Below, one piece after another: positions 3,692-31,701 of a stretch of 32,000 bases of DNA. Within the stretch, counting starts at the first letter, position 1. The number at the start of each line of letters is the position of its first letter. Under the pieces are notes generated by a model. That model ran no database searches. It had not been told where the DNA came from and saw only the letters and a list, made by a program, of their open reading frames with translations. The translations under genes were made by a program, and so were the position numbers. The stretch is from Trichodesmium erythraeum IMS101. Its GTDB lineage: Bacteria > Cyanobacteriota > Cyanobacteriia > Cyanobacteriales > Microcoleaceae. The stretch is from positions 6,330,001 through 6,362,000 of the forward strand of contig NC_008312.1 in the NCBI RefSeq assembly GCF_000014265.1, in the 5' to 3' direction.

Positions 3692-4213
3692 ATGGATATC
3701 GAAGAATTTGTTGAACGTTCTATAGGATGTTGGCGATCTCAACGCAGTGGCCACAGTTTAGCATTGAGTCATTTTGAAGAAGTTCGTTCCACAATAGATA
3801 TTGTTGATTTACCAAAAACTGATCATGAAGTAAAAAATTTATGTGATTCTAGTGGAGTAGATATAGAGAATGCTGTCTCTCCTTTTAAGATGAGTTGGGA
3901 AGGAGAATCAGATTGGGATGAAAATGAGATTATTAAAGGTAGTTGTGTCCTAGTACCAATACCTGAAGATGATAATCTAAAAAAAGGCAAATTATTACGT
4001 TCCCAAGGTTATGCAGAGACTGTTTCTGCTGTTGGAGAATATTACATTACTGAAGATGACACTTTTGTTCTATATACAGAATATGAAAGTGCTGCTGCGG
4101 AAGAAAAAATTTGGTTCCATACTTCCAATCTTAGGTTTAGAGTATCGTTGATTAAAACGAGTGATGGTAATGGTGTATTAACTGCTTCTTTTTCATCAGA
4201 AATTCGTTCTTGA
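3692..4213 (+). CDS. cpeS: Phycobiliprotein bilin lyase, CpcS/CpeS family (lipocalin-like)
   Basis: 173 aa. The N-terminal EEFVERSIGCWRSQRSGHSLA motif and the C-terminal KGKLLRSQGYAE...EYES...EEKIWFHTSNLRFRVSLIK...ASFSSEIR are hallmarks of S-type lyases. Its position right after two rod-linker genes mirrors cpeCDE-cpeS operons. The symbol is inferred from context. Confidence 0.8.
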   Translation: MDIEEFVERSIGCWRSQRSGHSLALSHFEEVRSTIDIVDLPKTDHEVKNLCDSSGVDIENAVSPFKMSWEGESDWDENEIIKGSCVLVPIPEDDNLKKGKLLRSQGYAETVSAVGEYYITEDDTFVLYTEYESAAAEEKIWFHTSNLRFRVSLIKTSDGNGVLTASFSSEIRS

Positions 4214-9935: not shown

Positions 9936-9939
9936 ACCA
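9856..9939 (+). repeat. Direct repeat copy 1, the functional 3' end of proV
   Basis: acaaaaaagaatttcaaggtatggtagaggcagttgatgtactgacgagtttgggaaaaccaaataaaaattatggttaaacca. About 90% identical to 10192-10277. Confidence 0.9.
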
Positions 9940-10191: not shown

Positions 10192-10277
10192 ACAAAAAAA
10201 AGAATTTCAAGGTATGGTAGAGGCAGTTGATTTACTGACAAGTTTGGGGCAACCAAATCAAAATTTGGATTAAACCA
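10192..10277 (+). repeat. Direct repeat copy 2, a relic copy of the proV 3' end lying immediately upstream of proWX
   Basis: acaaaaaaaagaatttcaaggtatggtagaggcagttgatttactgacaagtttggggcaaccaaatcaaaatttggattaaacca. It still reads EFQGMVEAVDLLTSLGQPNQNLD* in frame, but it is cut off from proV by about 250 bp of unrelated sequence. Confidence 0.9.
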
Positions 10278-12796: not shown

Positions 12797-13378
12797 TCAA
12801 CTTCTAGCAGCATTTTTTTGAACAATTTCTTCTAATTGTTTGCGAGTAATACAACGGCGTTCAGAACAATAAGCCATTAAATTAACACCATTCATCATTC
12901 GCACTGTATTAATTCGTACCCGAAAATCATCAGTCAAAAACCAACAACGTTCTTGTCCTTGATTTTTTTCATATTCTGTGTCAATTGTTAAGACTCCATC
13001 GTTGGTAAAATGATATCTACTCACTACAGGAATACTTTCAATATAACCACGATTACGCAAAAATTTTCCAGTTCTACCTGTTTGAGAATCAGGAATATCA
13101 ACTAGAATAGCACTATAATTTGGGTTAGGTTCACCATGATCTAAATTATCTTGCCAGTTAAAACTTGCACCACCTTTTGCTAAAGCTGGGTTGACTTTTT
13201 GCTGTTCACAAACTTTGATAACTTTGGGGTCATCTTTTGTTAAAACTTTGACAAGTATATTAGATTTTCCTGATTCATCTTGAGCAGAATCAAAATGATG
13301 AACAGTACGTTGAGAAAACCATGTTCCCTCGCTTTTGAGAAAAAAATCCATCATTGTCATTGGTGGTTTTAACTTCAT
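12797..13378 (-). CDS. Phycobiliprotein bilin lyase, CpcS/CpcU family
   Basis: 193 aa. MDFFLKSEGTWFSQRTVHHFD... at the N-terminus, then GKFLRNRGYIE...TEYEKNQGQERCWFLTDDFRVRINTV...MAYCSERR. The true start may be one of the internal Met codons (MTMMDFF), 6-9 codons downstream. Confidence 0.8.
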   Translation of the reverse strand: MKLKPPMTMMDFFLKSEGTWFSQRTVHHFDSAQDESGKSNILVKVLTKDDPKVIKVCEQQKVNPALAKGGASFNWQDNLDHGEPNPNYSAILVDIPDSQTGRTGKFLRNRGYIESIPVVSRYHFTNDGVLTIDTEYEKNQGQERCWFLTDDFRVRINTVRMMNGVNLMAYCSERRCITRKQLEEIVQKNAARS

Positions 13379-14999: not shown

Positions 15000-15869
15000 T
15001 TATACTTTGCCTCTCCTCTTTGGAACAACAGACCTCATTCCCCCTTTAGTTCCTAACTCGTTCTTTTGATATCTAGGAATAACGTGAATATTAGTATGCA
15101 TCATTTTTTGTCCTCCAGCATGATTAACGTTAATTCCTATATTAAATCCGTCAGGTTGATATTTTTCCTGTAAAATCTTCTGTACTTGATTTACCATTAA
15201 CCAACATTCTAACTGGTCATTTATAGGCAATTCAAAATAATTTTCCTGGTGAAGTTTGGGAATAATTAATGTATGGCCTTTTGTGACTGGGTAACCGTCA
15301 AGTATTGCATAAGCTTTTGCTGATTCTGTAATTAATTGTAGATTTTTACGAGGATTACAAAATAAGCATTTGTTCTCTGAATTTTTTTGCTGATTATAAT
15401 GAGTATATTCATAAATTTCACGAAGTTCATCAGTATAAATAGATTTAAAAGGTAAATTAACTAAACACTGATAAGTTGGTTTTTTGTGTATGTAATGTTC
15501 TCGAAAACCTTCTCCTTTCAAACCTCTTCTCACAGCATAATAAGCTTTTCCTTCAGAGTTTAATAACTGGGAAATTTGCATCAACACTTCGATTTGTGGT
15601 TGTTCAAATAAGACGTTTAAGACATAAAAACAAAGGATAGTATCAAATTTTCCCTGGGGATATTCTGGAAAATAATAAGGGTCGTAACCAATAATATCAA
15701 AGCCTTTTTTTTGTAGTAGTTTAACGTCTTTACCGAGACCACAGCCAAAATCAAGAATTTTACCTACTAGCAAGTTTTGTTTTAGTATTACTTGAGTTGG
15801 AAATGAGATAAATTTACGGTCTATAGCTGTAAGGTGGGTATATTGGTTTGGTTGTTTATTGGTAAACAT
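15000..15869 (-). CDS. Fusion protein: class I SAM-dependent methyltransferase domain plus HIT (histidine triad) domain
   Basis: 289 aa. Methyltransferase motif I ILDFGCGLGKD, acidic post-I DIIGYDP, and motif DTILCFYVLNVL. HIT part: CLFCN...AYAILDGYPVTKGHTLIIPKLH...GFNIGINVNHAGGQKMMHTNIHVIPR. Confidence 0.8.
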   Translation of the reverse strand: MFTNKQPNQYTHLTAIDRKFISFPTQVILKQNLLVGKILDFGCGLGKDVKLLQKKGFDIIGYDPYYFPEYPQGKFDTILCFYVLNVLFEQPQIEVLMQISQLLNSEGKAYYAVRRGLKGEGFREHYIHKKPTYQCLVNLPFKSIYTDELREIYEYTHYNQQKNSENKCLFCNPRKNLQLITESAKAYAILDGYPVTKGHTLIIPKLHQENYFELPINDQLECWLMVNQVQKILQEKYQPDGFNIGINVNHAGGQKMMHTNIHVIPRYQKNELGTKGGMRSVVPKRRGKV

Positions 15870-15871
15870 TG

Positions 15872-15903
15872 GTATGGAGAGGTTAGGGAGTAGGGAAATT
15901 AGG
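15872..15903 (+). repeat. STRR-like degenerate heptamer stretch (ttaggga gtaggga aattagg)
   Basis: Purine-rich 7-nt periodic run directly abutting the start of the minus-strand methyltransferase-HIT gene. Confidence 0.45.
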
Positions 15904-16487
15904 TAAAATAGGATTTTTAACAGGATTTTTTAAGTTTGGGGCTTTTAGGAGTTAACTTACCCCTAGGCTTTCCCGGGAGAGGTAGGGAGGTTGTATTCAA
16001 TGTCCCTAGAAAGAAGCAAACATCAGAATAATTAAGATTAGCTTAAACTGAGTTTTGCAAGAAGGTTTTTCAATTTTCGTTAATTACTTAAGTTTTTGAA
16101 GTGCTATTAATGCTGTTTTAGCATAACATTAATTCATGGGAATTAGTGTAATATATCTTGCTTAGTGGGTAAAAAAGTTTTACTTATAACCTTAAATATT
16201 CTTGACTTATTAAACTGTGAAGATGGGGAGCATAAGCAACTTCTTCAGGGAGGCTATACCCGAGTTCAAGTAGACTAGAATGGGTTTTACTTTTACTCTA
16301 AAAGGAATTTGTATTTAAAGCTATGGGGGTAGTTTTAATTGTTGCCAATTTATATTGGTGACAATACTTGTATTCAGGAAGCAAAATTTTAATTATCTTT
16401 GCCAAAATGATTATTTTTATAAGTAAATTATAAGTATGTTTTCTAGCTGTTTTAATTTGAGGTTTTGCATTTAATTTCTCCCCTTTG

Positions 16488-16526
16488 TTTTATAAATAGG
16501 TTTTATAAATAGGTTTGATAAATAGT
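16488..16526. repeat. 13-bp tandem repeat x3 (ttttataaatagg / ttttataaatagg / tttgataaatagt)
   Basis: Read directly from the sequence. It lies 17 nt before a HIP1 site (16544-16551). Confidence 0.9.
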
Positions 16527-16552
16527 TTGTATTTTAACTTAGAGCGATCGCT

Positions 16553-16578
16553 ATATTTTAGATAAATATTTTAGATAA
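16553..16578. repeat. 13-bp tandem repeat x2 (atattttagataa)
   Basis: Read directly from the sequence. It begins 1 nt after the same HIP1 site. Confidence 0.9.
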
Positions 16579-18238
16579 AATTATGCTGGGGCTACAATTT
16601 TATTTGGTATCAATTTCCTCAAGTATAATTACAGATAGTATTTTAATAATTAAATTATATCTTGTCAAAAAAACTAATGTCTTTTTTGCTAAATTTATGT
16701 CATAAATTTTTGATGATTATTCCTAAAATTTTTCAGAGATTGAGGATAGAATTTTTGATTTTTTTTCACTTCTATTCTTAGTCTTTTAATGGGATTAATT
16801 TGGGAAAAATAAGAGGATTAAAATAGTAATATGTTATCATAAAAAACTCATTTTTCTAAAACATTCTAAAAGCAAATATTTTGGTTTTTTTTACAGGATT
16901 ATTTCATAAAATTATAGATTTTTTTACTGTTGATACTGTTTTATTTTTTCACAAATAAACAGCTTTAATTTTTGATTTTTATTGAATTTTATCCCAAATT
17001 TTTAAGAGTGATTTTATAGTTTATGCCCATTGACTGATACCACTTTTAACTACTCTCAATATTAGGCATCTTCTTCTCTAATAATTGCTTTTCAAAGCGT
17101 AACCCAGATTTATAAAACTAATATCAGTGCGTAAAGATTAATGATATTGGTGTTTATTATTTTTGAGTACAAAGTTTTCTTAAAAACGAATTGCTCTGTG
17201 AGAGGAAAATATGATGGGGTAACCCTTACAGTAGCTACAGTTAGAAAGATAACTTTTTTGAGCTTGATATCGCTAAAAACTTTAGTTAGCAATAGTTATT
17301 CCTATAACTTGGCACTGTGAATATCTATTACTTTGATTTTTATGGGAATAGTAATAAAATTTTGTCTCTTAATTATAAGTAAATATATTATATAAGATTA
17401 GACGAAAATTGGCTGGGAAGTTAAATATTATTTTCTTTTCAGAACTATTAACTATATTAATTTCAGTTTTTTTACAAAAAAATTATAGTTTTGATACTGT
17501 TGACACCAATTAGGTTCTTATTAAATGTTTTAGTTATGTTAGATTCTGTAATATTAAAATCACTATTCTTTCTCACATTTTGTTTGTGCTGTGATTTTTG
17601 ATTATAGGTTTACCAAACAATTAGATTTTTTCAATAAAATAATGTATGTCTTACCACTAGGCAAATAGGAGATTTGAAAGTTAATTAAAAATTAACTATA
17701 TTTATTCAAAACTACGGATAAATAGGAATATTATAGCAGTATGAGTAGTTTAGAAAACTATGTAAATAAGTAACTTAGAGTTCCAAGATATTTGAAGCTT
17801 GAGTCTGAGATGAGTTAAAGAGTATAGTCCCTAGTCTTTAGTGAAAGAGGAAGCTAGCCCCAAACCTTATGCAATTCAATTTTACGGGTAAGTTTGGGTA
17901 ACTTTAGTAGAGGGCACAGAAATTTATAAATGCTCAAACTCCATCAGAACTTACTTCTAACTTTTGACTTCCCTCCCCTTACAGAAAAGGTAGCAAGTTC
18001 AATTTATTGTCACTAGAGAAAAATTGTATCCTTTGAAACCTCATTAAATCTCAGATATGTTATTAGCATTAGTTAAGCAACAATAGATATAAATATTCTC
18101 TGACAACAAAGACTAGCCCTATTTTTAGGAGGGTTAAAATTAAATTACGTGTAGCCCTATAGTAGCTTCCCTACTAATAATTTTTGATTAAGTTTGGGAG
18201 CAAATTACAAAATATATAAATAATTCAGAGGTTAAGCC

Positions 18239-18964
18239 ATGACTAACATTCTCAAGTCTCGTCTAAATAAAGAACAAACCACTGCTTGGTTACGAGGACT
18301 AATGACTATTGCTTATGCAGATGGAAAGCTTGATGCTACAGAAAAGGATTTATTTGACCACTTTAGTCATGATGAGTTTGCTTCAGAAATTGAAATCTCA
18401 GAACTCCAAACTATTAGCCCAGATGAGCTAGCTAAGATTTTTAGGTATGATTCCAGCATAGCAGAAAACTTTATGAGAACTGCTGTAATGGTGGCTTTGG
18501 CAGATGGGGTTTACTCTAGTATTGAGGATGAAGTACTTCATAAATATTGTGAAGCCTTGGGACTAAAGGTTAAGGCTTTAGAAGCGCTGCGAAAGAATTT
18601 GGAACAAGCTAAGGAAGAAGCGGAAAATTATGACCTTAAAGGTTGGTTAGAAGGGACAGAAGATACTAATAATTCTGTTATTGCCCATGATCCTGAGCAT
18701 GATAGAACTATACTCGCTCCAATTAAAGATTGGCTGGATAATTGGGAGATTAATGACTCAAAAGTGGCTCACATGGTTTGTAAAATGATTCCGTCTGAAT
18801 GTCCATTTGAGCGAGATGTTGTGATTTTTGGTAAGAAAGTAGCCCATATTCCAGCTATGTGCAAACTTAACCCGGTTTATGATCAGTTGGTTGGTTTGCG
18901 CTTCCGTGCTTTGTCTTATTTGGCAGATGAATGTAAAGAAGATATTTCTAAGTATTATCAGTAA
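18239..18964 (+). CDS. TerB-like N-terminal domain fused to a Mo-dependent nitrogenase C-terminal-like (Mo-nitro_C) domain
   Basis: 241 aa. Two ADG-type TerB motifs (MTIAYADGKLDATEKDLF; VMVALADGVYSSIEDEVL). The C-terminal IKDWLDNWEINDSKVAHMVCKMIPSECPFERDVVIFGKKVAHIPAMCKLNPVYDQLVGLRFRALSYLADEC matches my memory of the cyanobacterial Mo-nitro_C family. Confidence 0.75.
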   Translation: MTNILKSRLNKEQTTAWLRGLMTIAYADGKLDATEKDLFDHFSHDEFASEIEISELQTISPDELAKIFRYDSSIAENFMRTAVMVALADGVYSSIEDEVLHKYCEALGLKVKALEALRKNLEQAKEEAENYDLKGWLEGTEDTNNSVIAHDPEHDRTILAPIKDWLDNWEINDSKVAHMVCKMIPSECPFERDVVIFGKKVAHIPAMCKLNPVYDQLVGLRFRALSYLADECKEDISKYYQ

Positions 18965-20461: not shown

Positions 20462-21073
20462 CTAATAGCAATATTTTTCATCTTTGGGTTTAGGTTGATC
20501 TTTTGATATTCGCATTTTTCCTAAAAGGGTAGAAACCAATACACAGCGTTTTGCTTTACCTCCACTCTGAAGAGATAAAGTGAGACGTCCTAACTGACCG
20601 TTGACATGACCTTTGTGGTTAAATTGCACCCTCCATATATTGCTTGAAGGGTATTTACTTGAGGGGTATTTGTACAGGGTTGTTTCATCATCTACTTGTA
20701 CAAATGAGTTTAGGTTTTCCCAGTTAGCTTTTTCAGGCTCAACCGTTGCCTGGTGAACTGCCCATTTAATTGTTTTGCCTTGTTCTTGTTGAAAACTTGC
20801 TTGCCAGGTCGTTTTATGTTGGATAGCTTTTGTCTGTGCAGTTTTAATTATTTGATATGCCCTGTTATTGGAAGCACGAAGGCGTTGGTTGTTGATCAAA
20901 GCACTCCAGCCAGGAGCAGCGATCGCTGCCAGAGCACCTATCATTGAAACTGTAATCATTAATTCTATCATACTAAATCCTGCTTTTTCTGGCTTTAGTA
21001 ACTTTTCTGATAGACTCCGATGAATTTTTTTAACAATAGTTGATTTTAAAGATAGTGATGCATTTCTTTTCAC
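20462..21073 (-). CDS. Prepilin-type N-terminal cleavage/methylation domain pseudopilin (GspH/FimT-like), paralog of the HpsD-like gene
   Basis: 203 aa with a GTG start. Class III signal ...EKAG|FSMIELMITVSMIGALAAIAAPGW followed by SALINNQRLRASNNRAYQIIKTAQ. C-terminal strand CVLVSTLLGKMRI. Confidence 0.8.
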   Translation of the reverse strand: MKRNASLSLKSTIVKKIHRSLSEKLLKPEKAGFSMIELMITVSMIGALAAIAAPGWSALINNQRLRASNNRAYQIIKTAQTKAIQHKTTWQASFQQEQGKTIKWAVHQATVEPEKANWENLNSFVQVDDETTLYKYPSSKYPSSNIWRVQFNHKGHVNGQLGRLTLSLQSGGKAKRCVLVSTLLGKMRISKDQPKPKDEKYCY

Positions 21074-21648
21074 TTTGACCCCGATATTCTAATATTTATT
21101 TATTTGATTTGAAGTTATTATTTTAGTAATTAAAAATTTTATGTCAAACATAGAATATGGTGATATCAAACAAACTTTTAAAAAAATTGCTATGCTTAAA
21201 TTTGATATTTATAAAGACTATTTATTAATATAAATCTATTCTTAACTAATTTCTGTGGTTTATCTAATTATTTTTACTGCCCTCAGTAGAATAGCGCTAC
21301 TTTCGAGAAATAGTAGGATATCTATTTACAATTATATACCTTTTAAAACCCTTCTTAAAAGTGTTCTTAAAAAATGTTCAAATTCCCCATATCTCCATCT
21401 CCCCAGTTTATATACAAAATATTAAGTAACTAACGTCTTAGAAATTAAGGGATAAATATTTTTTTGCTTTTTGCCCATCCTAAATCCTCTTTTCCCTACT
21501 TCCTACTGCCGAAAACCCTCAATATTATGTACTTCATAATTTGGGAAAAAAGGTGATGTTTTTGAAGACAAAAAAAACTGCCCTGTCGTTAGCCGGAGGT
21601 GGTATTGACAAAGCAGTCGTTTTGTGGTAAATTTCAGCTAAAGTTAAA

Positions 21649-22359
21649 TTATGGGCATCCTTCTCCTTTACTTGAATTAAACTCTCCCTCTTCTATTCTC
21701 ATGCTACCTAAGATAGTTTCAATAATTACGCATCGTTTAAAAGCATCCTCCTTTGCCGTAGAAACACTAACAGCAAAAGGCAGTTCTTGGGGTAGTTCTT
21801 GGTCATCTACTTCTACTGCGCCTAAATTGTCAAACTGAATTACACCATCTTCATCGTCTTTATAAGCTTTACAATTACCATCATCATCTTTAGTTTCACA
21901 TTCTTTTACAGATAACTTAACCATTCCTGGCTTAATTTCACCATTAGCCCTTAAAGAATTCCATAAAAAACCATCAGAACCATCAGCATCGTTCTTAGGA
22001 TAAGTTTCGCTAGGAGGATCCTCATCATCCCCAGGAGGATCATAAATAACAAACCTTGGTGGATCGTTATAAGGTTTATTTGTGTCAGGATCTTTTTCAT
22101 CATTGTAGCGGAATTGAAGTCTTTTCTTTACCTTCGTTGACTTAGCATCACTTTGTGCTGCCCTTAAGGCTTGAAGGACCCCATTATTAACTGTGCGGGT
22201 GCGTTGTCTATTGATAAAAGCATTCCAGCCGGGGAGAGCGATCGTGCTCAATATTCCTATGATCAGCACTACGAATATTAATTCTATTATAGTAAAACCT
22301 GTAGTAGATGTTTTTGGCTGGTTTCGTAGTAACGTTTTAAATAAATTCAGAGGTTTCAT
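21649..22359 (-). CDS. hpsD: Pseudopilin with prepilin-type signal, HpsD-like (GspH/FimT-like N-terminal region, acidic D/E/P-rich middle)
   Basis: 236 aa with an ATG start. ...TSTTG|FTIIELIFVVLIIGILSTIALPGWNAFINRQRTRTVNNGVLQALRAAQ. C-terminal CVIIETILGSMRI. The symbol is inferred from position and size relative to the HpsA-like gene. Confidence 0.7.
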   Translation of the reverse strand: MKPLNLFKTLLRNQPKTSTTGFTIIELIFVVLIIGILSTIALPGWNAFINRQRTRTVNNGVLQALRAAQSDAKSTKVKKRLQFRYNDEKDPDTNKPYNDPPRFVIYDPPGDDEDPPSETYPKNDADGSDGFLWNSLRANGEIKPGMVKLSVKECETKDDDGNCKAYKDDEDGVIQFDNLGAVEVDDQELPQELPFAVSVSTAKEDAFKRCVIIETILGSMRIEEGEFNSSKGEGCP

Positions 22360-22421
22360 ATTAGTTTTTTATCTAGATAGTCTGAAAATCTTTTTGATTT
22401 TTTGTGGTATTTATACTCGTA

Positions 22422-23438
22422 CTATTCCCCAAAGCCACTACGCGGTCCCACTTGTGCAGTTGCTTTTGGACAATATGGAGATTTTTTATACGTTGGAGGA
22501 GTTGTCGAATTGTCTTCTATGCAACTGAAGCCATCTCGACGGCGGCGCATAGCATTACCTAGAATTGTGACTCTAGCTAGCGTTTTACCTTTTGCTAATT
22601 CTGTTTGCTTTATTTCAGAGTCTTTTGTATAGTCACTTGCCGAGTCTAGGGTAAAGTCTTCTATGTAATTTACTAATACAACCGGGCTGTTACTGTAGTC
22701 TTCACCTTCTTTTTTAGTCCAGCCAGTAGGATTACTGTTATCATAGGAAGTGTAGCCCAAGTCTCGTTTAAATTTCTTTTTACTTCCTGAGCATTCTTCT
22801 GAGCGACCGTCAGTACCACAGAAATAGTTACCCCAATAATCTTTTACCCCATCCTGTATTTCAAACCTAGCTATGCGCTTGGGGCAACTACTACCAGATG
22901 GCTGACACCAGATGCTATTCTTATCCTGCTCTTCTATTAAATAATAAATAACTAACGACTGGACAAAGCCGTCGTCACACTTATTTTCATCTGCCGGACA
23001 ATTAATAGACGTATCCTTATCGTCAATAGGTATAGAATGTTCTATAAACTTTCGCTTCCAGAAAACAAGGATAGGGTCTTTGTCCTCATCCTCAGAGTGC
23101 GGTAGTTGCTTAATAAAATCATCATAGCTAGGGATAGGAGGAGTTTTGCCTGGTTCTCCAACATAGTCAGGCTCATAAACATAAAACGCTTGACTCATAT
23201 CCTGAGCAATATAGCTAATAGCCGTTTGTAGCTCCTGCTCACTGTTAGCCTTTGCCTGCTCCCCCACATCTCGGTTGAGCATATCTACGGCAAAGGTCAA
23301 TATTGGTACAATAATTATGCTCGCCACAGCTGTTGCTACTAGCAGTTCAGTCATTGTGAAACCACTTGTTAAATTGCTGGCTTTTTGTAGCTTGCTATTT
23401 GATAGGGCTTTTATTAGTAGTTTTTGCAAGTTGTACAT
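22422..23438 (-). CDS. hpsC: Pseudopilin with prepilin-type signal, HpsC-like
   Basis: ORF frame 22422..23543. The 23543 start is a TTG that would overlap the upstream gene by 52 nt, so I prefer the ATG at 23438 (MYNLQKLLIKALSNSKLQKASNLTSG|FTMTELLVATAVASIIIVPIL). Cys-rich globular part. The symbol is inferred from synteny and size. Confidence 0.7.
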   Translation of the reverse strand: MYNLQKLLIKALSNSKLQKASNLTSGFTMTELLVATAVASIIIVPILTFAVDMLNRDVGEQAKANSEQELQTAISYIAQDMSQAFYVYEPDYVGEPGKTPPIPSYDDFIKQLPHSEDEDKDPILVFWKRKFIEHSIPIDDKDTSINCPADENKCDDGFVQSLVIYYLIEEQDKNSIWCQPSGSSCPKRIARFEIQDGVKDYWGNYFCGTDGRSEECSGSKKKFKRDLGYTSYDNSNPTGWTKKEGEDYSNSPVVLVNYIEDFTLDSASDYTKDSEIKQTELAKGKTLARVTILGNAMRRRRDGFSCIEDNSTTPPTYKKSPYCPKATAQVGPRSGFGE

Positions 23439-23491
23439 TGTAAATACATTTCCAAACTTTTTAAGAGTTATTATCCGTGTTAGTCGTCTTT

Positions 23492-24223
23492 TTATTCTGT
23501 GCCACAATGTTTTTCTGAGTGTTTGTCTTTCACGCGATCGCAAATATTTTTAAATGAACCATAGAGTTTCTTTGGAGCTATCTCTGTTGTTGTTTTAAAC
23601 AGTGCCCTTTCTTTATCGCCATATCTAGTAGCCAACCCTGCATTATTAGAATAAGTCGATATGGTCTCATTCAACAGCTCAAACCCTTCGACGCCCCCAC
23701 CCCTATAAACCCACACAAATAATTCGTAGCCATACTCAGGTTTCTCGTAATCCCCATGAAACCCTACAGCATATACAATCATATCTGTCAACCCTTTGCA
23801 GTCACCTCCGTCTCCTCCATCAACGCAGTATAAGTTGGAAGCAACTCCAAGGTGATTTACAGCTGTTTTACAATACTTCTTTGGGTTTAGTTTTTTGAGG
23901 TCTAGATCTTTGCAGTCTAGCTCTGTTGGAACCTTTACCCCTTGAACTGTGCTCCATCCCTCTGGATCAGTGAGAGCTATTTTTGGAGGCTCTATATCCC
24001 CTTGCCTCACAGCATCAATATAACTCCTGGCCGCTTGCGTCGCCAGTTCGACCCGTCGTGCCTGCACCCGCCTCCCCACTGATAAAGCAACAACCGGAGC
24101 AATAGCGCTCATTGTTGTCGCTACGAGAACCATCGCCACCAACCCTTCCAGGATAGTGTAACCTGAATTAGGATTAGTTTGTTGCCATTTTAGGATTTTT
24201 TGCTGAATTTGTTGTTTATTCAT
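23492..24223 (-). CDS. hpsB: Pseudopilin with prepilin-type signal, HpsB-like
   Basis: 243 aa with an ATG start and a GGAG-type RBS (gagggagctATG). MNKQQIQQKILKWQQTNPNSG|YTILEGLVAMVLVATTMSAIAPVV. The symbol is inferred from synteny and size. Confidence 0.7.
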   Translation of the reverse strand: MNKQQIQQKILKWQQTNPNSGYTILEGLVAMVLVATTMSAIAPVVALSVGRRVQARRVELATQAARSYIDAVRQGDIEPPKIALTDPEGWSTVQGVKVPTELDCKDLDLKKLNPKKYCKTAVNHLGVASNLYCVDGGDGGDCKGLTDMIVYAVGFHGDYEKPEYGYELFVWVYRGGGVEGFELLNETISTYSNNAGLATRYGDKERALFKTTTEIAPKKLYGSFKNICDRVKDKHSEKHCGTE

Positions 24224-24334
24224 AGCTCCCTCATAAAACTGATATAAAACCTCATAACAAGTAACATTTTTATGTTTACTTCCTACCTTGGCTGAGACCG
24301 CCGGCGGTTACTCACCCACAAGTATTAATACTCA

Positions 24335-24343
24335 AGTATACCC
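24335..24343 (-). promoter_or_regulatory. Candidate -10 region GGGTATACT (minus strand), about 110 nt upstream of the hpsB-like start
   Basis: Plus strand reads agtataccc. It is the same 9-mer as at 6227-6235 and contains TATACT. Confidence 0.3.
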
Positions 24344-24538
24344 CATTTTTTTCAATTAATGCTTGCATATCTACGGGGTCTATAGAAACTCGACGGTTAG
24401 GGCCATCATAAGCCCTGAGATTCAATAGCATATCTTTAACATCACCACACCTACTTTTTTGATTTAATTATATTTTGCCAAATATTGCAGAAAGAGGTAA
24501 TAGGATAGATAGAAAATTTTAAGGATAAGACTCACGAA

Positions 24539-24605
24539 GAAACCGGGTTGATCAAATAAATTTTGTGGTTTAAACAACAACAACTATGGGAATAAACCCG
24601 GTTCC
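24539..24605 (-). terminator. Long-loop hairpin about 60 nt after the hpsA-like stop; candidate attenuator, terminator or processing site
   Basis: aaccgggtt (24541-24549) pairs with aacccggtt (24595-24603), with a ~45-nt loop. It shares the 13-mer aagaaaccgggtt with the hairpin at 3526-3599. Confidence 0.3.
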
Positions 24606-24667
24606 TTATTTGGGTGCGTGAGCCTTGAAATCTTGACCTCTACAAGATGTCTATTGATTTTTAGGTT

Positions 24668-27600
24668 TTATTTTGTCGATTTGTCACAGAATGCCTCGGG
24701 ACGATAACCATCAGGAGTCGCGTTTTCAACAAAATTGCCATCGTCGTCTATGACTTTAGAACACAACAAAGTTTTTACCCACCTATCATCGAAACTTACT
24801 TCCCGATAATACCTGTCTGGTTTACCACTTGAGTCTTCCCCGCTCAGTAGTTGAGAAAAGTAGTCGGGGGGCTGAGATAACAAACCTACATCATATCCCC
24901 AGTTACGATCAGGTGGTAGGAAGTATCCCACCCTAGAGCCCCTTTTATCAATTACGTAGTTGTTGATTTTATAGGAACCCGGATATCCAAAATCGGTGGA
25001 TACTTTATCCAAAAGATGTGGATAAGGTGCAGTAGCATAGGCACTACGACTTAATTGCATGAAACTACCAGTGATCTTGGCAGTAAAGTTGTTGTTCTTG
25101 TCTTTTGCCCAGTTTTCTAGGAAACGAGGCAAGTTTTGTAAACCACCATTGCTTTCTCCAGGACGAGGTGGCACGTCACCAGAGCCTACTATTAAGTTAA
25201 ATATAGTATCTCCAGAAGCTCGGGTTAGCCACCTTGGCCCATTGTTTAGAGTTGTGTTATTCTCGCTTGGTAGTGTGGCTTGAGTCTCTTCAGGTGTTTC
25301 TGTTGGTAGATAGTTTTGTAGAACAGGTATTAGTAAAGGTTGTTGAACTGTTACTTCCTGCAAATAAGCCAAAGGATATTGGTTGCCATAGTTGTGATCA
25401 TTTGGGTTGTTGCTGTGTGGCACAGGAGGATTGCTAGAAGAAGTTCTGAACCAGAGAGCATTTTCAGCTAGCCTAGGTAGGCTACCGCCGCTGTAGGGGA
25501 AAACATTCACCAGCTCATTATTATTTATTCCTATTGGAATTGGTAAACTACTGTCTAATATTAACTCGTTATTTGTATTCCGAGCAAACGCTACACGTCT
25601 TGGGTAACGGCGATCCTCAGCCTCTAGTGGGGGGCGAGCTGTTGTGCCTGCAACTAAATTATTGACACTTGTTCCAACTAGTTCAGATCCTTTCTCATCA
25701 CTATTGACAGCATTGTTACCCACAAACCAATCACCAGGCCCACAAGAAAACACAGTAGGTTTACGACAGATCTCCATTACATACTCTGGGAAATTTCCAC
25801 GTCGCTGAACAGGCGTCACATAATTATTGAAGTAAGAACTATTGACAGCAGGACCATTATTATTAGTCGCGTAATTCTTATCTGTTCGAGCCCCAGTTCC
25901 TGTAATATCAGCACCGCTACTCAGGCCATTGGTAACAAAATTGTTCTCATAGAAACCATTTAACATCCGAGCGCCAGCAACAGTAACATCGCTGGCTGAG
26001 ACGTTGGTATTTGTGTTTTGTCTGTCGCCGTCTAGGTCAAAGTTTAATGCTGTTTCGTCAAACGGCCCTCCTACAGGGTATCCTACTTTGAGGGGGCTAC
26101 CAGCATTATTTCTCAGATCAAAATCTCCTTCATCACGAAAACCCGTACGAAAACCTTCAGATAACAAAGTAATGGCATCTGACACCACAGTTGCGGGACG
26201 CCAACTATCTCCTTGTGTGCACTTAGGAAGCCTAGGATCTCCAGGACGACAAGCAAAATTAGGATTTATCTTATTTTTAGTGCGAGTATAGAAATTACTC
26301 CAGTTAGATGTTAACTCGTCATTAAACTCCTCTTGAGTATGAAGATTAAAATTACCTTTAATATACACTGGCAAATTAGTGACTAAGGTTAAACCCTTTT
26401 CTTTTACTACATCGGACAGTTTCTTAACGCCATCATCATTTTGGCCATCGTTATTATTATCATTTCTAGCTAGACGCTCACCATTGATCAACATTATGCC
26501 ATTAGGTCGTCGAGTCGGATCTAACTTATAGTCTGTGGGACTTAAAGCCTTAGTCCTGTCCTCATCTATGCCTGTTCCTTCACTATTTTGAGATCGATCG
26601 CTCCTATCTGGCAAAGCATCATCCCGACTAGCATAAATAATACCGCTATATGGGAGTAAATATTCTTTTTTTAGTCCCGTTGATACCTCACTAGGAATTG
26701 CGCTACCAAAAGAAGATATACTTTGATTTCTCATTTGACCTAAGTCCAATTGAGTCAAGCGAATTTCCAGAGGTTGCCGCTCCTCTAAGGGCAGGTTATA
26801 TTCTGCTTTTAATTGGGCTGGTTCAGCTAGAGTGCTATTAAGGGTAAAAGTCTCGTCAACATTAGGGGTACTGACGTTATCCGCATGTATAGCTTTTATT
26901 TGTCTGGCATCCAATAGAGTTACTTCTTTAATTACACCATCAGCAATAGTTACTCCAGGGGAAGGACTGTTAGTTGAAGTCAATGTGCCGTCTAATATAT
27001 CCAAAGAACAGAGAGTAGAATCTATTGCTGCTTGTTCTGCTAAAGTGAGTTCGTTACCATTAGACAACCTTCTTAAAGCTTTTCGCAGAGGCTCGTTAGC
27101 AAACCTGCCATTTGGAAAAACCATGTTTGCTTGTGTTCCCAGTTCAGATGGGCTTGTTCCGGAAAACAAACCTGTAGTTGCGTCAAAACTAGCAGTCGTT
27201 GGTCTACTTGTTTTTGGTGGTGGGTAAACCACACCGTTGTTTGAGTTACCATCTGGTGCTGCACCAAACCCTACGTCTGGTAACGGCGATAGGTTTTTTG
27301 CTGTTTTCCTGCTTGTTGGGTCGTAGTAACTACTAATACAAGCAATAGGAGCTTGTTCGTTGTCTGTAGAATCAGATCTTTGGTCAATGGGGTCTCGTGC
27401 GTAGTGATACAACACTGTTGCACGCATTATCAGATCTCCTTTGGCATACTGGGGAGTATCTGGGTCAATTGTCGGAAGTTGAGAGGGATATAAAGATGTA
27501 TCTAGAGGCCAATTTGGGCCTTGAGATGGAAGCGTAACACTGTTCACTTTAGCCCCAGGACTAGGCGACATTGGCATAGTATCTGGCCAGACAACTGTAT

Positions 27601-29515
27601 ATTGTTCAGTCTGAGGAGTTGCTGGGTCATCATAGGGGTTTCCTGGAGGTGGCGGCAGAAAAGAATTCTGGCGCTTATAAACTCCTGCTCCTGTAATTAT
27701 ACGTAAGCCACCAACGCCCTCTAAAGCATCTTCAGGCACTTGCGCCGCCGCCTTTTCCCAAAAGCCACCCCGATCTGTAGAACCCACATCAGGTAGTTCT
27801 GTGACGCGAGGTTTACGGGTACGAAGAGGATCATTGATTTGGTTTCCATCATCATCAAGCCATTTTCCACCTGTTTCTTGTGGATAAAAGACAAACTTAG
27901 AATCATTTGGGCTGGAGACGTCTTTAGAATCATCCCACCATTCAACTGGCAGGTTATTTCCTACAAGTATACGTTCTCCCAAAAAATTCTCTGGGCGATC
28001 ATCTTGTTGATCATCTGGTTTCCTTGCTTTTAGTTGATCATTTTTGAGAGACAATTTAGTTTCAGCGTCTGTTGGCAGTATCCATTTATCTGGTGGTTTA
28101 AGTGTATTACCACTATTTTCAGGAGTATCTGTCGGATCATATACATCAGATGGGCTTACTTCTGCAAAAGTTACTCTTCTGGTTCTATCGCGGAAGTAAA
28201 GACCTATTATCTCGCGACGTATTTCTTTCTCCCTATCTTCGTCACCTTCTTTTCCTTCCTTCTTAAGCTGCTTCTCTACTTGGCTTTTAACTATTTCAGG
28301 GTCTTGTGTTTTATTTTTGTCCACTTGATCGTCAACCATAACCTCAATACGCTTACTGTATGCGTTGTTGTTATACATTGCCTCAAAAGCATTGTTATTC
28401 ACAGACTGATCTGTAGTGGTAATTTTGTCTGTTGTTACAGTTACCCCTTGGCCCTGAAATAAATCTACCTCTACGTCGTTTCTCTCGTCTTTATTACTTG
28501 ACATTCCATTAACAACGTTTCCCCCAACAATGATCTTGCTATTTTCTGCTTGATAGAAGCAAGACTCATTACTACTTACTTGATATAAGCGTAAAGCGTT
28601 CTCAAAAGGAGAAACTACTAAGTTACTGTTTGTTACAATTCTCCCATTCAGACGAAAAGCCGGACCTGGAGATATTTCCAAATCATCTTGATATACCACA
28701 GCATTGTTGCTCAGAGGAACTCTTTTCCAGTCCTCTTGATATTCCAGAGCAGTAATAGATGGGTTTGTTTTATTTTCCTGTATAGGAACAGCCACTGTGT
28801 AGACAAAAAAACTTTTGATGAAATCACCTGTTGCTGTGTTTTTATACCAGCCATTCCCTGTTGAGCTTAAGTCTCCAGAGCAGTCTTCCTTTTGCAGTGT
28901 TCCTACAGCTACTGGCGGAGTTCTTGCTTGTAAAGGTGTTTTCGCCCTCTTGTCAAGGGGAGTCTTGAGATATATGCCATATATTACATAATGATCATCG
29001 TCTCCATCTCCATTTGTGTCAAAAGGAAACCTCCACGCAGTTGTGATCTCATCTTCCGTTTTAGGATCGTTATCGTTGTAAGTCACCTTTAAGCGCCTTT
29101 CATCTGGAAACTTATACCTCTGATCAATGGCATCACTTAAATATGCGTCAACTCCTCGCTCACTAGGTGTTTGCCCCCTTGGTAAAGTAGGATCTTCCCT
29201 CAATAAATACTGAAGTTTAGCCTCCGCCCTATCAAGAGCAGGAGCAGCTAAACTCAGGGCTTCTTGGCTTGCTGTAACTTTGCTAACTTGTTCAGCTCGA
29301 TCAAAAGACCGCAGTAATATAGCTGAAGTCAGTAATACTACTGCCAACATTACCATTGTAGCTGTTGGGAGCACAAACCCTGCATTAAAAAGGTTACCAT
29401 TAACTTGTTTGCCTGGAGCGATCGCCCTGACAAACCCCTTAGCCAGTAGCCTTAGTTGTCTTCTTATCTTTGTGAGTCTACTATTGATATTTTTTAAAAT
29501 ACGATGGTAATACAT
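24668..29515 (-). CDS. hpsA: Giant (1615 aa) HpsA-like protein with a single N-terminal pilin-like hydrophobic anchor
   Basis: Uninterrupted 4.8 kb ORF with an ATG start. N-terminus ...GNLFNAG|FVLPTATMVMLAVVLLTSAILL, then a large Asn/Asp/Pro/Thr-rich region. It sits directly upstream of four pseudopilin genes, as in the Nostoc punctiforme hpsA-D arrangement. The symbol rests on architecture and synteny, not on an alignment I could run. Confidence 0.7.
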   Translation of the reverse strand: MYYHRILKNINSRLTKIRRQLRLLAKGFVRAIAPGKQVNGNLFNAGFVLPTATMVMLAVVLLTSAILLRSFDRAEQVSKVTASQEALSLAAPALDRAEAKLQYLLREDPTLPRGQTPSERGVDAYLSDAIDQRYKFPDERRLKVTYNDNDPKTEDEITTAWRFPFDTNGDGDDDHYVIYGIYLKTPLDKRAKTPLQARTPPVAVGTLQKEDCSGDLSSTGNGWYKNTATGDFIKSFFVYTVAVPIQENKTNPSITALEYQEDWKRVPLSNNAVVYQDDLEISPGPAFRLNGRIVTNSNLVVSPFENALRLYQVSSNESCFYQAENSKIIVGGNVVNGMSSNKDERNDVEVDLFQGQGVTVTTDKITTTDQSVNNNAFEAMYNNNAYSKRIEVMVDDQVDKNKTQDPEIVKSQVEKQLKKEGKEGDEDREKEIRREIIGLYFRDRTRRVTFAEVSPSDVYDPTDTPENSGNTLKPPDKWILPTDAETKLSLKNDQLKARKPDDQQDDRPENFLGERILVGNNLPVEWWDDSKDVSSPNDSKFVFYPQETGGKWLDDDGNQINDPLRTRKPRVTELPDVGSTDRGGFWEKAAAQVPEDALEGVGGLRIITGAGVYKRQNSFLPPPPGNPYDDPATPQTEQYTVVWPDTMPMSPSPGAKVNSVTLPSQGPNWPLDTSLYPSQLPTIDPDTPQYAKGDLIMRATVLYHYARDPIDQRSDSTDNEQAPIACISSYYDPTSRKTAKNLSPLPDVGFGAAPDGNSNNGVVYPPPKTSRPTTASFDATTGLFSGTSPSELGTQANMVFPNGRFANEPLRKALRRLSNGNELTLAEQAAIDSTLCSLDILDGTLTSTNSPSPGVTIADGVIKEVTLLDARQIKAIHADNVSTPNVDETFTLNSTLAEPAQLKAEYNLPLEERQPLEIRLTQLDLGQMRNQSISSFGSAIPSEVSTGLKKEYLLPYSGIIYASRDDALPDRSDRSQNSEGTGIDEDRTKALSPTDYKLDPTRRPNGIMLINGERLARNDNNNDGQNDDGVKKLSDVVKEKGLTLVTNLPVYIKGNFNLHTQEEFNDELTSNWSNFYTRTKNKINPNFACRPGDPRLPKCTQGDSWRPATVVSDAITLLSEGFRTGFRDEGDFDLRNNAGSPLKVGYPVGGPFDETALNFDLDGDRQNTNTNVSASDVTVAGARMLNGFYENNFVTNGLSSGADITGTGARTDKNYATNNNGPAVNSSYFNNYVTPVQRRGNFPEYVMEICRKPTVFSCGPGDWFVGNNAVNSDEKGSELVGTSVNNLVAGTTARPPLEAEDRRYPRRVAFARNTNNELILDSSLPIPIGINNNELVNVFPYSGGSLPRLAENALWFRTSSSNPPVPHSNNPNDHNYGNQYPLAYLQEVTVQQPLLIPVLQNYLPTETPEETQATLPSENNTTLNNGPRWLTRASGDTIFNLIVGSGDVPPRPGESNGGLQNLPRFLENWAKDKNNNFTAKITGSFMQLSRSAYATAPYPHLLDKVSTDFGYPGSYKINNYVIDKRGSRVGYFLPPDRNWGYDVGLLSQPPDYFSQLLSGEDSSGKPDRYYREVSFDDRWVKTLLCSKVIDDDGNFVENATPDGYRPEAFCDKSTK

Positions 29516-29858
29516 AGGCTCTTACTTAATATTTAATATTCTTGGTATTACCTAATAAGATTTGTTATTAGGAACTCAAGCCATTACTTTTCATATTGCC
29601 CATATTGACTAAAAAAATTACACTGCCATAACAAATTGACTTAAATTAATATTTTAGCTTGACTAGGTCTAGATTTTTTTCCTCTCCCTGAATTAAAAAC
29701 AGAAGCAGGCTATTGAAATAGAGCCAAAGCTTAGGGAGAGCAACCTACTACCCATGAGACGAGGCAAAATATTTAATAAAAGTAGACTCCTTGAACATTG
29801 GATCCTAATTTCATCCTCCGCCCCAGGAGTTGACACCGAGAAGTATGTCAATATAGTC

Positions 29859-30704
29859 CTATGATTTTAATAATTCTAAGTTAAACCCAGAAATATTATC
29901 CAATATATATTGCTTCTGAGATTCATCAAAGATTTTATTGAACTTGTCAGAACCAAATTTTTTAATTTCCTGACTAACTGTTCTCCCCCCTTTCTCTGAA
30001 CTTAAAAACGTAGCAGCTTGACTGTAACTTGTGATCATCGTTTCATCAAACTCTAGAGATAGAAAATTACATACCCTCTTGATCATAGCAGAAGTATTTG
30101 TAACAAGCTCGTCATAACTCAGCAAAATATGATTAGATTTCTGAGAATACTTCATACTAATTTCTATTGACTCCTTCCATCTTTCTAGGCAGCGGTTTAT
30201 GTCCCATGCCCCATACCATTCTTGAGGATATTTATGAGTCACTTCATACAAAGAAGCTACCACATCAGAACCATTTCTTAAAAGATGGATCATTCTAGCT
30301 TCAGGTAACATCTTTTCTATGTAGTCTAAATAAAGCAAATGGTCCGGTGTTTTTTCTAGCCACAGACTCTTACCTTCTTCTACAGTTAAAATATTTAAGA
30401 CCTTAATAAAACTACGAGTATATAAATCTATAAAATCTAGAATGGGAATTTTAGGAAAATATTTTAACATTTCTGGGCGATTAATTTGATTTTTAAAGTA
30501 TTGATTTAAATGTGGTTTTAAACGCCGGGAAATTAATCCAAATTTTTTTCGCTTAGGCTCATACTTAGCTACTCCATAGAGAAAAAACTTAGTTTCAGGA
30601 AAAGAAGCTATTTCAGGATGAGTTGCCAATATACTTTGTAATAATGTTGTCCCAGAACGAGGACATCCAAAAATAAAAATAGGTGCTTGAAGTTTTGGTT
30701 TCAT
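29859..30704 (-). CDS. Sulfotransferase (PAPS-dependent family)
   Basis: ORF frame 29859..30710. I prefer the ATG at 30704, preceded by aaaGGTGatt. 5'-PSB loop FGCPRSGTTLLQSIL and 3'-PB region HLLRNGSDVVASL. Confidence 0.8.
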   Translation of the reverse strand: MKPKLQAPIFIFGCPRSGTTLLQSILATHPEIASFPETKFFLYGVAKYEPKRKKFGLISRRLKPHLNQYFKNQINRPEMLKYFPKIPILDFIDLYTRSFIKVLNILTVEEGKSLWLEKTPDHLLYLDYIEKMLPEARMIHLLRNGSDVVASLYEVTHKYPQEWYGAWDINRCLERWKESIEISMKYSQKSNHILLSYDELVTNTSAMIKRVCNFLSLEFDETMITSYSQAATFLSSEKGGRTVSQEIKKFGSDKFNKIFDESQKQYILDNISGFNLELLKS

Positions 30705-30765
30705 AATCACCTTTTAATTAATGAAAAATTATAAACGCAAAAATCAAAATATTCTCCATTTTTTC

Positions 30766-31701
30766 TTATTTATTAAACCAGACCTGTACAAAATAACCCC
30801 AACTACGCCAAATACGACACCTAGTTGTTAATCGTACTCTACTTTGTGGCCAAAATTGTGCAATAACTCTTTTTAAATTAAGTAAATTCCACAAACTTTC
30901 TAGATATTCACGAGTTATGGACTTACCTATTATCTGATCAGCGATCGCATCAGACCGGCCTTGCCAATAACTGCGACTCAACAACCATTTAGCATTAATT
31001 CTTTCCTTCGGTACCCAATGCTGCACAGACGCTTTAGGGTTGTAATAAAACTTCCCACCAAATTGTTCTAAAGTTAAATTTAGTAATAACTCTTCTTGGG
31101 ATAATAGTTTTTTTCCTTGACGGCCTAACTTTTCATTAAAACCCCCCACATTTTTGAGAGACTCCTTGGTATATGCCATATTTGCCCCATAGGGAAATTT
31201 ATTTGTTTTAAACCACTTAGGTTGTGAGCCATAGTCAAGTACAGTAAAAAAATCCTCCATAGTTTTATCTATCCAGTCTGGTTTAGGAATTTCCCATAAC
31301 CCATAAATAGGTCCACCAACACATACTGGAGATGGTTTAACCGTTGTAAAACTATCTAATATCGACTCTAACCATTCCTCACAAGGAATAGCATCATCAT
31401 CTAAATATGCAACATATTTACCTTTGGCCAGACTTAAACCTAAATTACGAGCCCTTGACAGTCCCAGTACTGGTTCATATATATAACGAAAATTAGAATA
31501 GTTTTCTTGATAGCGATCGCCTATTTCTTTAGTATTATCCTCAGAAACATTATCTATAATTAAAACTTCAAAATTTTGATTAGGAAAAGACTGTTTTACC
31601 AGTCCTTCTAAAGCTAAAATCAACCTATCAGCTCTATTATGAGTGCATATAACCACAGAAACTATTGGTTGAATATTTTTTTGAATTTCAATTGAAGACA
31701 T
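30766..31701 (-). CDS. Family 2 glycosyltransferase (GT-A fold)
   Basis: 311 aa. VSVVICTHNRADRL...FEVLIIDNVSEDNT...RARNLGL...YVAYLDDDA (DxD motif). Confidence 0.85.
   Translation of the reverse strand: MSSIEIQKNIQPIVSVVICTHNRADRLILALEGLVKQSFPNQNFEVLIIDNVSEDNTKEIGDRYQENYSNFRYIYEPVLGLSRARNLGLSLAKGKYVAYLDDDAIPCEEWLESILDSFTTVKPSPVCVGGPIYGLWEIPKPDWIDKTMEDFFTVLDYGSQPKWFKTNKFPYGANMAYTKESLKNVGGFNEKLGRQGKKLLSQEELLLNLTLEQFGGKFYYNPKASVQHWVPKERINAKWLLSRSYWQGRSDAIADQIIGKSITREYLESLWNLLNLKRVIAQFWPQSRVRLTTRCRIWRSWGYFVQVWFNK

Follow-up and report, generated by a model that had tools for sequence, protein, structure and literature searches.

The hps locus of Trichodesmium erythraeum IMS101: a giant pilin-like protein and four small pilins in a polysaccharide gene cluster

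The T. erythraeum cluster and the described hps system

The hormogonium polysaccharide (HPS) genes of Nostoc punctiforme (hpsA-K, Npun_F0066-F0078; Risser and Meeks 2013, Khayatan et al. 2015) form the described system closest to the gene cluster analyzed here, which occupies positions 20462-31701 of a 32,000-nucleotide (nt) stretch of Trichodesmium erythraeum IMS101 DNA, referred to as the window. The published N. punctiforme gene order is hpsA-B-C-D-E-F-G-H, the "four pseudopilins" that the literature ascribes to the locus being encoded by hpsBCD and hpsH. HPS secretion in this organism requires PilB, PilQ, Hfq and EbsA. This is a known locus: it is named by curated protein models, it has been reported as conserved across filamentous cyanobacteria, and a mechanistic proposal for it is published. 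Judged by protein sequence and synteny, the region in the window is the hps locus of T. erythraeum IMS101.

The original prediction, made from the DNA letters, described seven consecutive minus-strand genes, namely a GT2-family glycosyltransferase gene, a sulfotransferase gene, a gene for a 1615-amino acid (aa) protein and four prepilin genes, and likened them to the hpsA-hpsBCD arrangement defined in N. punctiforme, with a Trichodesmium-like organism as the tentative host. All seven open reading frames (ORFs) are present at the predicted positions and intact, including the 4.8-kb frame of hpsA. The guess at the host was right, as the HpsA of the window and the T. erythraeum IMS101 protein show 100% identity. 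The identification itself was borne out by the NCBIfam equivalog cutoffs of 400 bits for HpsA, 150 bits for HpsB, 200 bits for HpsC and 300 bits for HpsE. HpsA, HpsB and HpsC exceed theirs (scores in Table 1), HpsB and HpsC narrowly, and the HpsA match spans residues 10-1606.

Synteny was analyzed in 80 HpsA-encoding loci on one-genome-per-species contigs, by comparing the window proteins with all ORFs of these loci. Directly downstream of hpsA, hpsB and then hpsC are found in 80 of the 80 loci. In most of them, the next gene encodes a homologue of the 236-aa protein, and the gene for a homologue of the 203-aa protein comes after it, either directly or past one to three GT2 genes. The Nostoc loci have the order A-B-C-236 aa-GT2-GT2-GT2-203 aa. 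Two of their three GT2 proteins reach HpsE scores of 520 and 474 bits in NCBIfam, and the 203-aa orthologue lies behind the hpsE-G glycosyltransferase genes in Nostoc loci L070, L071 and L073. Since this order equals the published hpsA-H order, the 236-aa gene was assigned as hpsD and the 203-aa gene as hpsH. BLAST matches to the HpsD and HpsH orthologues range from 1e-15 to 5e-34. NCBIfam contains no model for HpsD or HpsH, and the Nostoc orthologues also give generic matches only. The original prediction had matched three of the pseudopilins to hpsBCD; the fourth is HpsH, a paralogue of HpsD, and the set is HpsBCD plus H.

The N. punctiforme and T. erythraeum loci have HpsA, HpsB and HpsC equivalogs in common, as well as the relative order of HpsD and HpsH, an HpsE in the cluster, a J-Box-type motif before hpsA and pil genes that are unlinked. 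T. erythraeum differs in the placement of its glycosyltransferase genes (hpsE, GT1, GT2), which precede hpsA rather than separating hpsD from hpsH, and in that a sulfotransferase gene sits directly before hpsA. In addition, genes of the hpsF and hpsG type were not identified in the T. erythraeum cluster. The host differs as well: T. erythraeum glides permanently and classical hormogonia are not known from it.

As Trichodesmium forms no classical hormogonia, the locus could be a relic that is decaying or out of use. Hormogonia were undocumented in this genus before a tentative report in 2026, and the genes are separated by unusually long spacers at hpsA-hpsB (445 nt) and hpsD-hpsH (575 nt). Against this stand the seven intact ORFs, the presence of identical HpsA on 39 contigs and of the window GT2 in 70 collection blocks from isolates and field assemblies, and the retention of the full set at 54-90% identity in other Trichodesmium lineages. 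Moreover, the promoter motif of hpsA is conserved (see below) and Trichodesmium filaments do glide. A relic is hence extremely unlikely.

HpsA and the small pilins as a candidate tip complex

Sets of minor pilins with a comparable composition have been described elsewhere. The exopolysaccharide (EPS)-type set of unicellular cyanobacteria (Synechocystis pilA9-12; Thermosynechococcus tlr0680-82) has the same order of a giant protein without Glu5 followed by PilV-, PilW- and FimT-like proteins, and is proposed to prime long motility pili and to bind EPS (bioRxiv 10.64898/2026.02.12.705559). This preprint assigns HpsA-like proteins to "PilX_EPS," a group of PilX-type minor pilins, and reports that PilX-PilV-PilW-FimT sets usually share one locus. 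In Synechocystis, the sole species for which priming by the EPS-type set is reported in the preprint, one of the two sets, EPS or Com, is enough for surface PilA1, and losing both abolishes surface pili. In Thermosynechococcus, deletion of the EPS-type (HpsA-type) locus abolishes phototaxis. Together with the PilB, PilQ, Hfq and EbsA data from N. punctiforme, the preprint renders outdated the earlier remark that the system has no mechanistic description. Its structural models leave out proteins of HpsA size (>1280 aa), and the HpsA models presented here have no solved relative. The Trichodesmium genes further differ from the EPS-type set by including two FimT-like paralogues, HpsD and HpsH, and by their position inside a polysaccharide gene cluster.

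The four predicted class III signals are present in the small pilins as NSG/YTILE (HpsB), TSG/FTMTE (HpsC), TTG/FTIIE (HpsD) and KAG/FSMIE (HpsH), the slash marking the cleavage site. Gly-1 and Glu+5 are invariant in the alignments of all four proteins, in agreement with their N_methyl and TIGR02532 matches. Specifically, G21 and E26 are invariant in 39 HpsB orthologues, the Gly and Glu5 in 39 HpsC orthologues, and G21, F22 and E26 in the HpsD orthologue alignment. The start methionine is conserved in the HpsC, HpsD and HpsH alignments. N_methyl is the only Pfam family found in any of the four.

More distant, sub-threshold matches hint at the classes to which these proteins belong. PilV (TIGR02523) is matched by 28 of 39 HpsB orthologues, with a best value of 4.5e-8. 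Among the 39 HpsC orthologues, GspJ is matched by five, PpdB by seven and ComGF by seven. All 25 HpsH orthologues match PpdA and 18 match GspH, and the HpsD of the window gives PpdA at 3.8e-7 and GspH at 4e-4, these generic matches having been checked for the window and Nostoc proteins only. HpsD and HpsH are full-length paralogues (hhalign probability 100%, E 9.5e-45). The matches suggest that HpsB belongs to the PilV/GspI class, HpsC to the PilW/GspJ class, and HpsD and HpsH to the FimT/GspH class. An assignment of classes from PDB profiles was dropped, as matches to the N-terminal helix do not separate minor-pilin classes.

Verrucomicrobia have a pilin-like gene cassette, the "Verru_Chthon cassette," which also encodes a very large protein A. 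Protein C of this cassette is matched below threshold by 27 of 39 HpsC orthologues and protein D by 18 of 25 HpsH orthologues. The window HpsC, HpsD and HpsH likewise match models of this cassette; HpsA shows no match to protein A. The cassette may be a system analogous to the hps pilins.

HpsA starts with a 46-aa basic leader that ends at the site NAG/FVLPTATMVMLAVVLL. At position +5 of this site (AG/FVLPT) it carries Thr instead of Glu. Across 76 sequences, the stretch G46/F-V-L-P-T51 shows a conservation of at least 90%; G46 and V48-T51 are invariant, as are eight cysteines, and a further two cysteines reach a conservation of 90% or more. The ten conserved cysteines fit an extracytoplasmic location of HpsA. 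The body of the protein, of approximately 1500 residues, is large and beta-rich. Absence of Glu5 is a hallmark of the tip-most subunit, GspK or PilX, of such complexes. HpsA combines this absence with a large extra domain, as a subunit in the GspK/PilX position would.

The structure of HpsA was predicted with AlphaFold2 (AF2) for residues 1-1200 and 416-1615 separately, each with the 76-sequence alignment. The first model has a predicted local distance difference test score (pLDDT) of 74.7 and a predicted template modelling score (pTM) of 0.73, the second a pLDDT of 73.2 and a pTM of 0.79. In the N-terminal part, the predicted leader helix and a low-confidence stretch at the cleavage site precede a 56-residue helix (52-107) and beta strands between residues 140 and 265. 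A solenoid-like stretch of short strands at 271-365, with a pLDDT near 90, leads into mixed alpha/beta domains. Confidence is lowest at approximately 100-270 and 1496-1575 in the two halves, which were modelled apart; these segments near both termini are compatible with a domain built from both ends of the protein. The 1-1200 model gave no match below E 0.1 to viral models in Foldseek, and when its last 215 residues were used to look for shorter PilX-like relatives, the matches were all C-terminal fragments from short contigs. As a modest new element, this analysis provides AF2 models of HpsA that lack a structural match in the PDB.

As an architectural parallel to cyanobacterial PilX, the preprint names ComZ of Thermus thermophilus, a tip pilin whose fold carries a beta-solenoid insertion. 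The modelled HpsA resembles it in having a solenoid-like segment behind an N-terminal pilin-like part. It differs in that no Foldseek match links ComZ to HpsA, and ComZ serves DNA uptake instead of motility or EPS.

HpsA could also be an enzyme that processes polysaccharide, as a lyase, a hydrolase or a polymerase-like protein, or a helix-anchored adhesin, with the small pilins acting separately. In favour of this reading, HpsA has no Pfam domain or structural match, and its NCBI name is "biosynthesis protein." Its many invariant Asp, Arg, Trp, Tyr and Asn residues are scattered over 1500 positions, as on a carbohydrate-binding or carbohydrate-active surface, and a few homologues (P0097 and P0113 in the collection) carry an ice-binding-like DUF3494 solenoid. 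Conversely, no catalytic family was detected in the HpsA sequence (NCBIfam, Pfam, PDB profiles), its prepilin-type AG/F site is nearly invariant and is followed by an alpha1 helix of pilin length, and hpsA adjoins hpsB-hpsC strictly throughout the synteny sample. A separate enzyme or adhesin is therefore very unlikely.

Unlinked pilus machinery and the proposed handling of polysaccharide

Neither the window ORFs (those of 80 aa or more) nor the adjoining 10 kb past the GT2 end of the cluster include a gene for a GspE/PilB ATPase, a GspF/PilC platform, PilD or a secretin, in line with what the original prediction had stated for the window. The pilins, of which HpsA, HpsB and HpsC match Hps models, do not adjoin machinery genes of a type II secretion system (T2SS) or type IV pilus. 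Published BLAST data give T. erythraeum IMS101 scores of at least 1.0 for homologues of PilA1, B1, D, M, N, O, Q and T, and the pilus machine is hence encoded elsewhere in the genome.

The same kind of machine operates the GspH-I-J-K and FimU-PilV-PilW-PilX(-PilY1) complexes of Proteobacteria, which likewise have four to five prepilin-like subunits. Common to HpsA and GspK is the logic of a subunit without Glu5 and with a large extra domain, combined with PilD/PilB/PilC-type machinery and a secretin. The Hps proteins differ from the proteobacterial complexes in showing only sub-threshold similarity to them, in a tip subunit about five times the size of GspK, and in the absence of PilY1. In addition, the hps genes, unlike those of the proteobacterial tip complexes, lie apart from the genes of the machine and next to glycosyltransferase genes.

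Taken together, HpsA, HpsB, HpsC and HpsD/H probably form a tip or priming complex on a shared machine, in which HpsA would bind a polysaccharide that the upstream enzymes make and sulfate. In such a scheme, hpsE, GT1, GT2, the sulfotransferase and the gene for a 184-201-aa protein would help to build and sulfate a motility exopolysaccharide. HpsA, B, C, D and H would be inserted in the inner membrane, cut by PilD and assembled by one type IVa machine (PilB/C/M/N/O/Q, PilT). They would constitute a PilX-PilV-PilW-FimT-type core minor-pilin complex with HpsA tip-most, HpsB and HpsC beneath it, and HpsD or HpsH linking to the major pilin. This complex would start the assembly of long adhesive motility pili, and the large extracellular body of HpsA would cap the tip and bind the polysaccharide trail of the cell itself. 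Slime deposition could thereby be coupled to pilus-driven gliding of the trichome, and hence to colony formation; Trichodesmium gliding has been linked to aggregate formation in the literature. Expression would probably be under SigJ/SigF-type control through the conserved J-Box promoter.

Several points weigh against a tip complex. The class matches of HpsB, C, D and H all fall below the curated cutoffs and lie mostly in the N-terminal helix. PDB profile searches with these four proteins gave alpha1-helix matches at best, significant for HpsD and HpsH only. Leaders of 21-46 aa (HpsA, 46 aa, with a predicted basic helix at 3-36; HpsB, 21; HpsC, 26; HpsD, 21; HpsH, 32) are unusually long for type IVa pilins. 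Neither the HpsA sequence profile nor, in Foldseek, the HpsA AF2 fragments (best E 0.48 and 5.7) matched any PDB entry. The Foldseek PDB library should contain GspK, PilX and ComZ entries. When the N-terminus of HpsA, its C-terminus and a "mini-HpsA" (N plus C) were aligned by hhalign to the four small-pilin alignments, a weak alpha1-helix match to HpsD appeared (probability 33%), and the C-terminus gave nothing. On the biological side, some authors hold that permanently gliding Oscillatoriales have no assembled pili and favour slime extrusion via PilQ. Finally, the genetic need for the locus in motility and polysaccharide release is documented in N. punctiforme only.

A rival reading, which was the original proposal for the hps locus, is export through a pseudopilus. 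HpsA-D/H would then be a short, T2SS-like piston or guide on PilB/PilC/PilQ, and the glycan would leave via PilQ as the "junctional pore" or nozzle. The loss of HPS secretion in pilB, pilQ, hfq and ebsA mutants of N. punctiforme is in line with such export, as is the identification of the nozzles of gliding cyanobacteria as PilQ/GspD secretins, in a study that speculates on a supply of slime to PilQ by hps pseudopilins. Tight clustering of pilin with glycosyltransferase genes is widespread, the hps set contains no major-pilin-like gene, and several permanently gliding Oscillatoriales have been reported to lack pili. Polysaccharide export by pilins, as the word "secretion" implies, is nevertheless contested in the literature. 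Work on HPS has identified a pathway of the Wzx/Wzy type with an exporter of the Wza type and calls the export route unresolved, and the loss of HPS in type IV pilus mutants can be explained by a DnaK1-DnaJ3 regulatory link to active motors. Furthermore, homologous EPS-type sets prime true external pili in unicellular species, and a pseudopilus that moves polysaccharide has no precedent. Extrusion by a pseudopilus is consequently unlikely. We regard as decidedly unlikely its more specific form, in which a short pseudopilus capped by the giant HpsA directly handles sulfated polysaccharide and drives or guides the glycan through PilQ. If true, it would mean a type IV filament machine that secretes glycan instead of protein, and would provide a first mechanistic basis for how Oscillatoriales such as Trichodesmium glide by "slime nozzle."

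Candidate promoter, sugar enzymes and surroundings of the locus

The features of the locus are listed in Table 1. The start of hpsC was corrected: its 373-aa ORF (22422-23543) opens at a TTG that overlaps hpsB, and the start was placed at 23438 because the Met there is nearly invariant in 39 orthologues. The locus is truncated by the window edge. On T. erythraeum contigs, three further same-strand genes precede the window GT2, and beyond these lie rpmB (L28), htpG and nifZ/nifT. On the downstream side, the cluster is bounded by a convergent obg gene.

Table 1. Genes and promoter element of the T. erythraeum IMS101 hps locus
Feature	Position in the window	Strand	Support
hpsE, 322-aa GT2	upstream of window GT2, outside window	same strand	NCBIfam HpsE 498 bits vs cutoff 300 (L081)
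GT1, 349 aa	upstream of window GT2, outside window	same strand	T. erythraeum contigs
Protein without family, 184-201 aa	upstream of window GT2, outside window	same strand	T. erythraeum contigs
GT2-family glycosyltransferase, 311 aa	30766-31701	-	Pfam Glycos_transf_2 6.8e-29
Sulfotransferase, 3'-phosphoadenosine-5'-phosphosulfate (PAPS)-type, 283 aa	29859-30710	-	Pfam Sulfotransfer_3 1.2e-34, Sulfotransfer_1 7.1e-18
J-Box-like extended -10 element GGGCAATAT	29593-29601	-	86 nt upstream of hpsA ATG
hpsA, giant pilin-like protein, 1615 aa	24668-29515	-	NCBIfam HpsA (NF038301) 1501.7 bits
hpsB, minor pilin, 243 aa, G21/YTILE	23492-24223	-	NCBIfam HpsB 158.5 bits
hpsC, minor pilin, 338 aa, G/FTMTE	22422-23438	-	NCBIfam HpsC 211.2 bits
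hpsD, minor pilin, 236 aa, G21/FTIIE	21649-22359	-	position after hpsA-B-C; PpdA/GspH matches
hpsH, minor pilin, 203 aa, G32/FSMIE	20462-21073	-	hpsH position in Nostoc loci; HpsD paralogue

In N. punctiforme, expression of hpsA-D is sigJ-dependent, and SigJ promoters carry a J-Box, GGGaAtacT. The element GGGCAATAT upstream of the T. erythraeum hpsA (read 29601-29593) fits the GGGnAnnnT of this consensus and is a candidate SigJ/SigF-type promoter. Among the 45 loci with a consistent hpsA start, 42 have a GGGnAnnnT starting at -92 to -78 of hpsA, where approximately one would be expected; many of these loci are closely related, so that the count overstates their independence. Better evidence comes from an alignment of 14 sequences from Trichodesmium to Microcoleus, in which the TGGG.A..AT columns are invariant and the flanks vary between clades. 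Across the whole window, GGGAATACT occurs at chance level when up to one mismatch is allowed (9 found versus 7.4 expected), and the weight of the motif therefore rests on its position upstream of hpsA. This conservation suggests that SigJ/SigF-type control of hpsA extends to non-hormogonial Oscillatoriales.

A near-consensus J-Box, GGGTATACT, is located at 24335-24343 on the minus strand, approximately 112 nt before hpsB. Other loci do not share the J-Box-like motifs before hpsB and hpsH. Ahead of hpsH, a sigma-70-like TTGACA-16-TAAAAT at 21147-21120 matches the consensus, a match in sequence only, and hpsH may have its own promoter. Scans of the window with Rfam and for tRNAs were empty, and no riboswitch was thus detected before the locus at gathering thresholds. 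Within the hpsA-hpsB spacer (24224-24667), whose 445 nt compare with 0-200 nt in most relatives, a hairpin with 16-nt arms (24537-24552 / 24592-24607) is located just past the hpsA stop. Some pipelines call a 39-aa ORF at approximately 24312-24431 in the same spacer.

Regarding the sugar enzymes, the best NCBIfam match of the window GT2 is HpsE, at 143 bits and thus under the cutoff, making the protein HpsE-like and not an equivalog. The HpsE-type glycosyltransferase of the cluster is instead the 322-aa GT2, encoded three genes further upstream. Orthologues of the window GT2 with 76-85% identity occupy the same position in the Dapis loci L002 and L004.

The sulfotransferase has weak similarity to NoeE (NCBIfam, 9.7e-15). 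Loci L001-L004 have orthologues of 75-82% identity immediately before hpsA. Within 2.5 kb upstream of hpsA, a sulfotransferase gene is found in 8 of the 55 loci with enough flanking sequence. These eight belong to the Trichodesmium/Okeania/Dapis group or to unclassified metagenome-assembled genomes, and the sulfotransferase of one of them (L018) is merely 23% identical. No sulfotransferase gene beside hpsA was found in the Microcoleus or Nostocales loci of the synteny sample, and the Lyngbya loci L022 and L023 carry homologues of 45-51% identity more than 5 kb upstream. On this distribution, a sulfotransferase adjoining hpsA is specific to the Trichodesmium/Okeania/Dapis group. Sulfated polysaccharides and abundant sulfotransferases have been noted in marine cyanobacteria, including Trichodesmium. 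The clade-limited gene predicts that the gliding slime of the Trichodesmium/Okeania/Dapis group would be a sulfated polysaccharide. By description, the Synechocystis xss (synechan) cluster is comparable in that sulfotransferase genes lie among EPS glycosyltransferase genes of a cyanobacterium. It differs in being a Wzx/Wzy cluster without pilin genes.

HpsA proteins encoded next to a sulfotransferase gene (L001-L004, L009, L014, L018 and L063) have a net charge of -63 to -124 and an isoelectric point (pI) of approximately 4.3-4.6. Elsewhere, the mean net charge is -13 and the pI approximately 6.4; the HpsA of the window has a net charge of -42 and a pI of 4.95. HpsA was thus not more basic beside a sulfotransferase gene but much more acidic, in a comparison confounded by phylogeny and probably by marine habitat. 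The acidity of HpsA is probably a marine or phylogenetic effect.

Outside the locus, the window contains a number of unusual features. Two CpcG-like linker genes and two CpeS-like bilin lyase genes (1607-4213 and 12797-13378) flank betaine transporter genes; these phycobilisome genes are unrelated to the hps locus. An 82-nt direct repeat (9858-9939 / 10196-10277, 90% identity) places a second copy of the proV 3' end shortly before the next gene, which encodes a fused ProW-ProX protein (10300-12288, 662 aa). On the plus strand, 6267-7910 encodes a 547-aa protein with an N-terminal ribbon-helix-helix (RHH) and a body of 90/180-nt tandem repeats (6804-7627, matching at up to 85%), for which no family match besides RHH was found. 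Two unusual fusions were identified as well: a methyltransferase-HIT protein of 289 aa (15000-15869, minus strand) and a TerB plus Mo-nitrogenase C-terminal domain protein of 241 aa (18239-18964, plus strand). Between them, approximately 2.4 kb of AT-rich DNA (15870-18238; GC content of 25-29%) contains no ORF of >60 aa and no Rfam or tRNA match, and includes 13-nt tandem repeats at 16487-16579.

In summary, the analysis adds a clean parts list of the T. erythraeum hps locus, including the genes beyond the window edge, and a SigJ-type element kept ahead of hpsA in non-hormogonial Oscillatoriales, which is a useful addition. With approximately 1500 residues that fold at moderate confidence and nothing solved alike, HpsA is a worthwhile structural target. 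Trichodesmium contributes a large share of open-ocean new nitrogen, and its colony formation depends on filament gliding. The hps locus is an obvious genetic handle on this gliding and colony behaviour.

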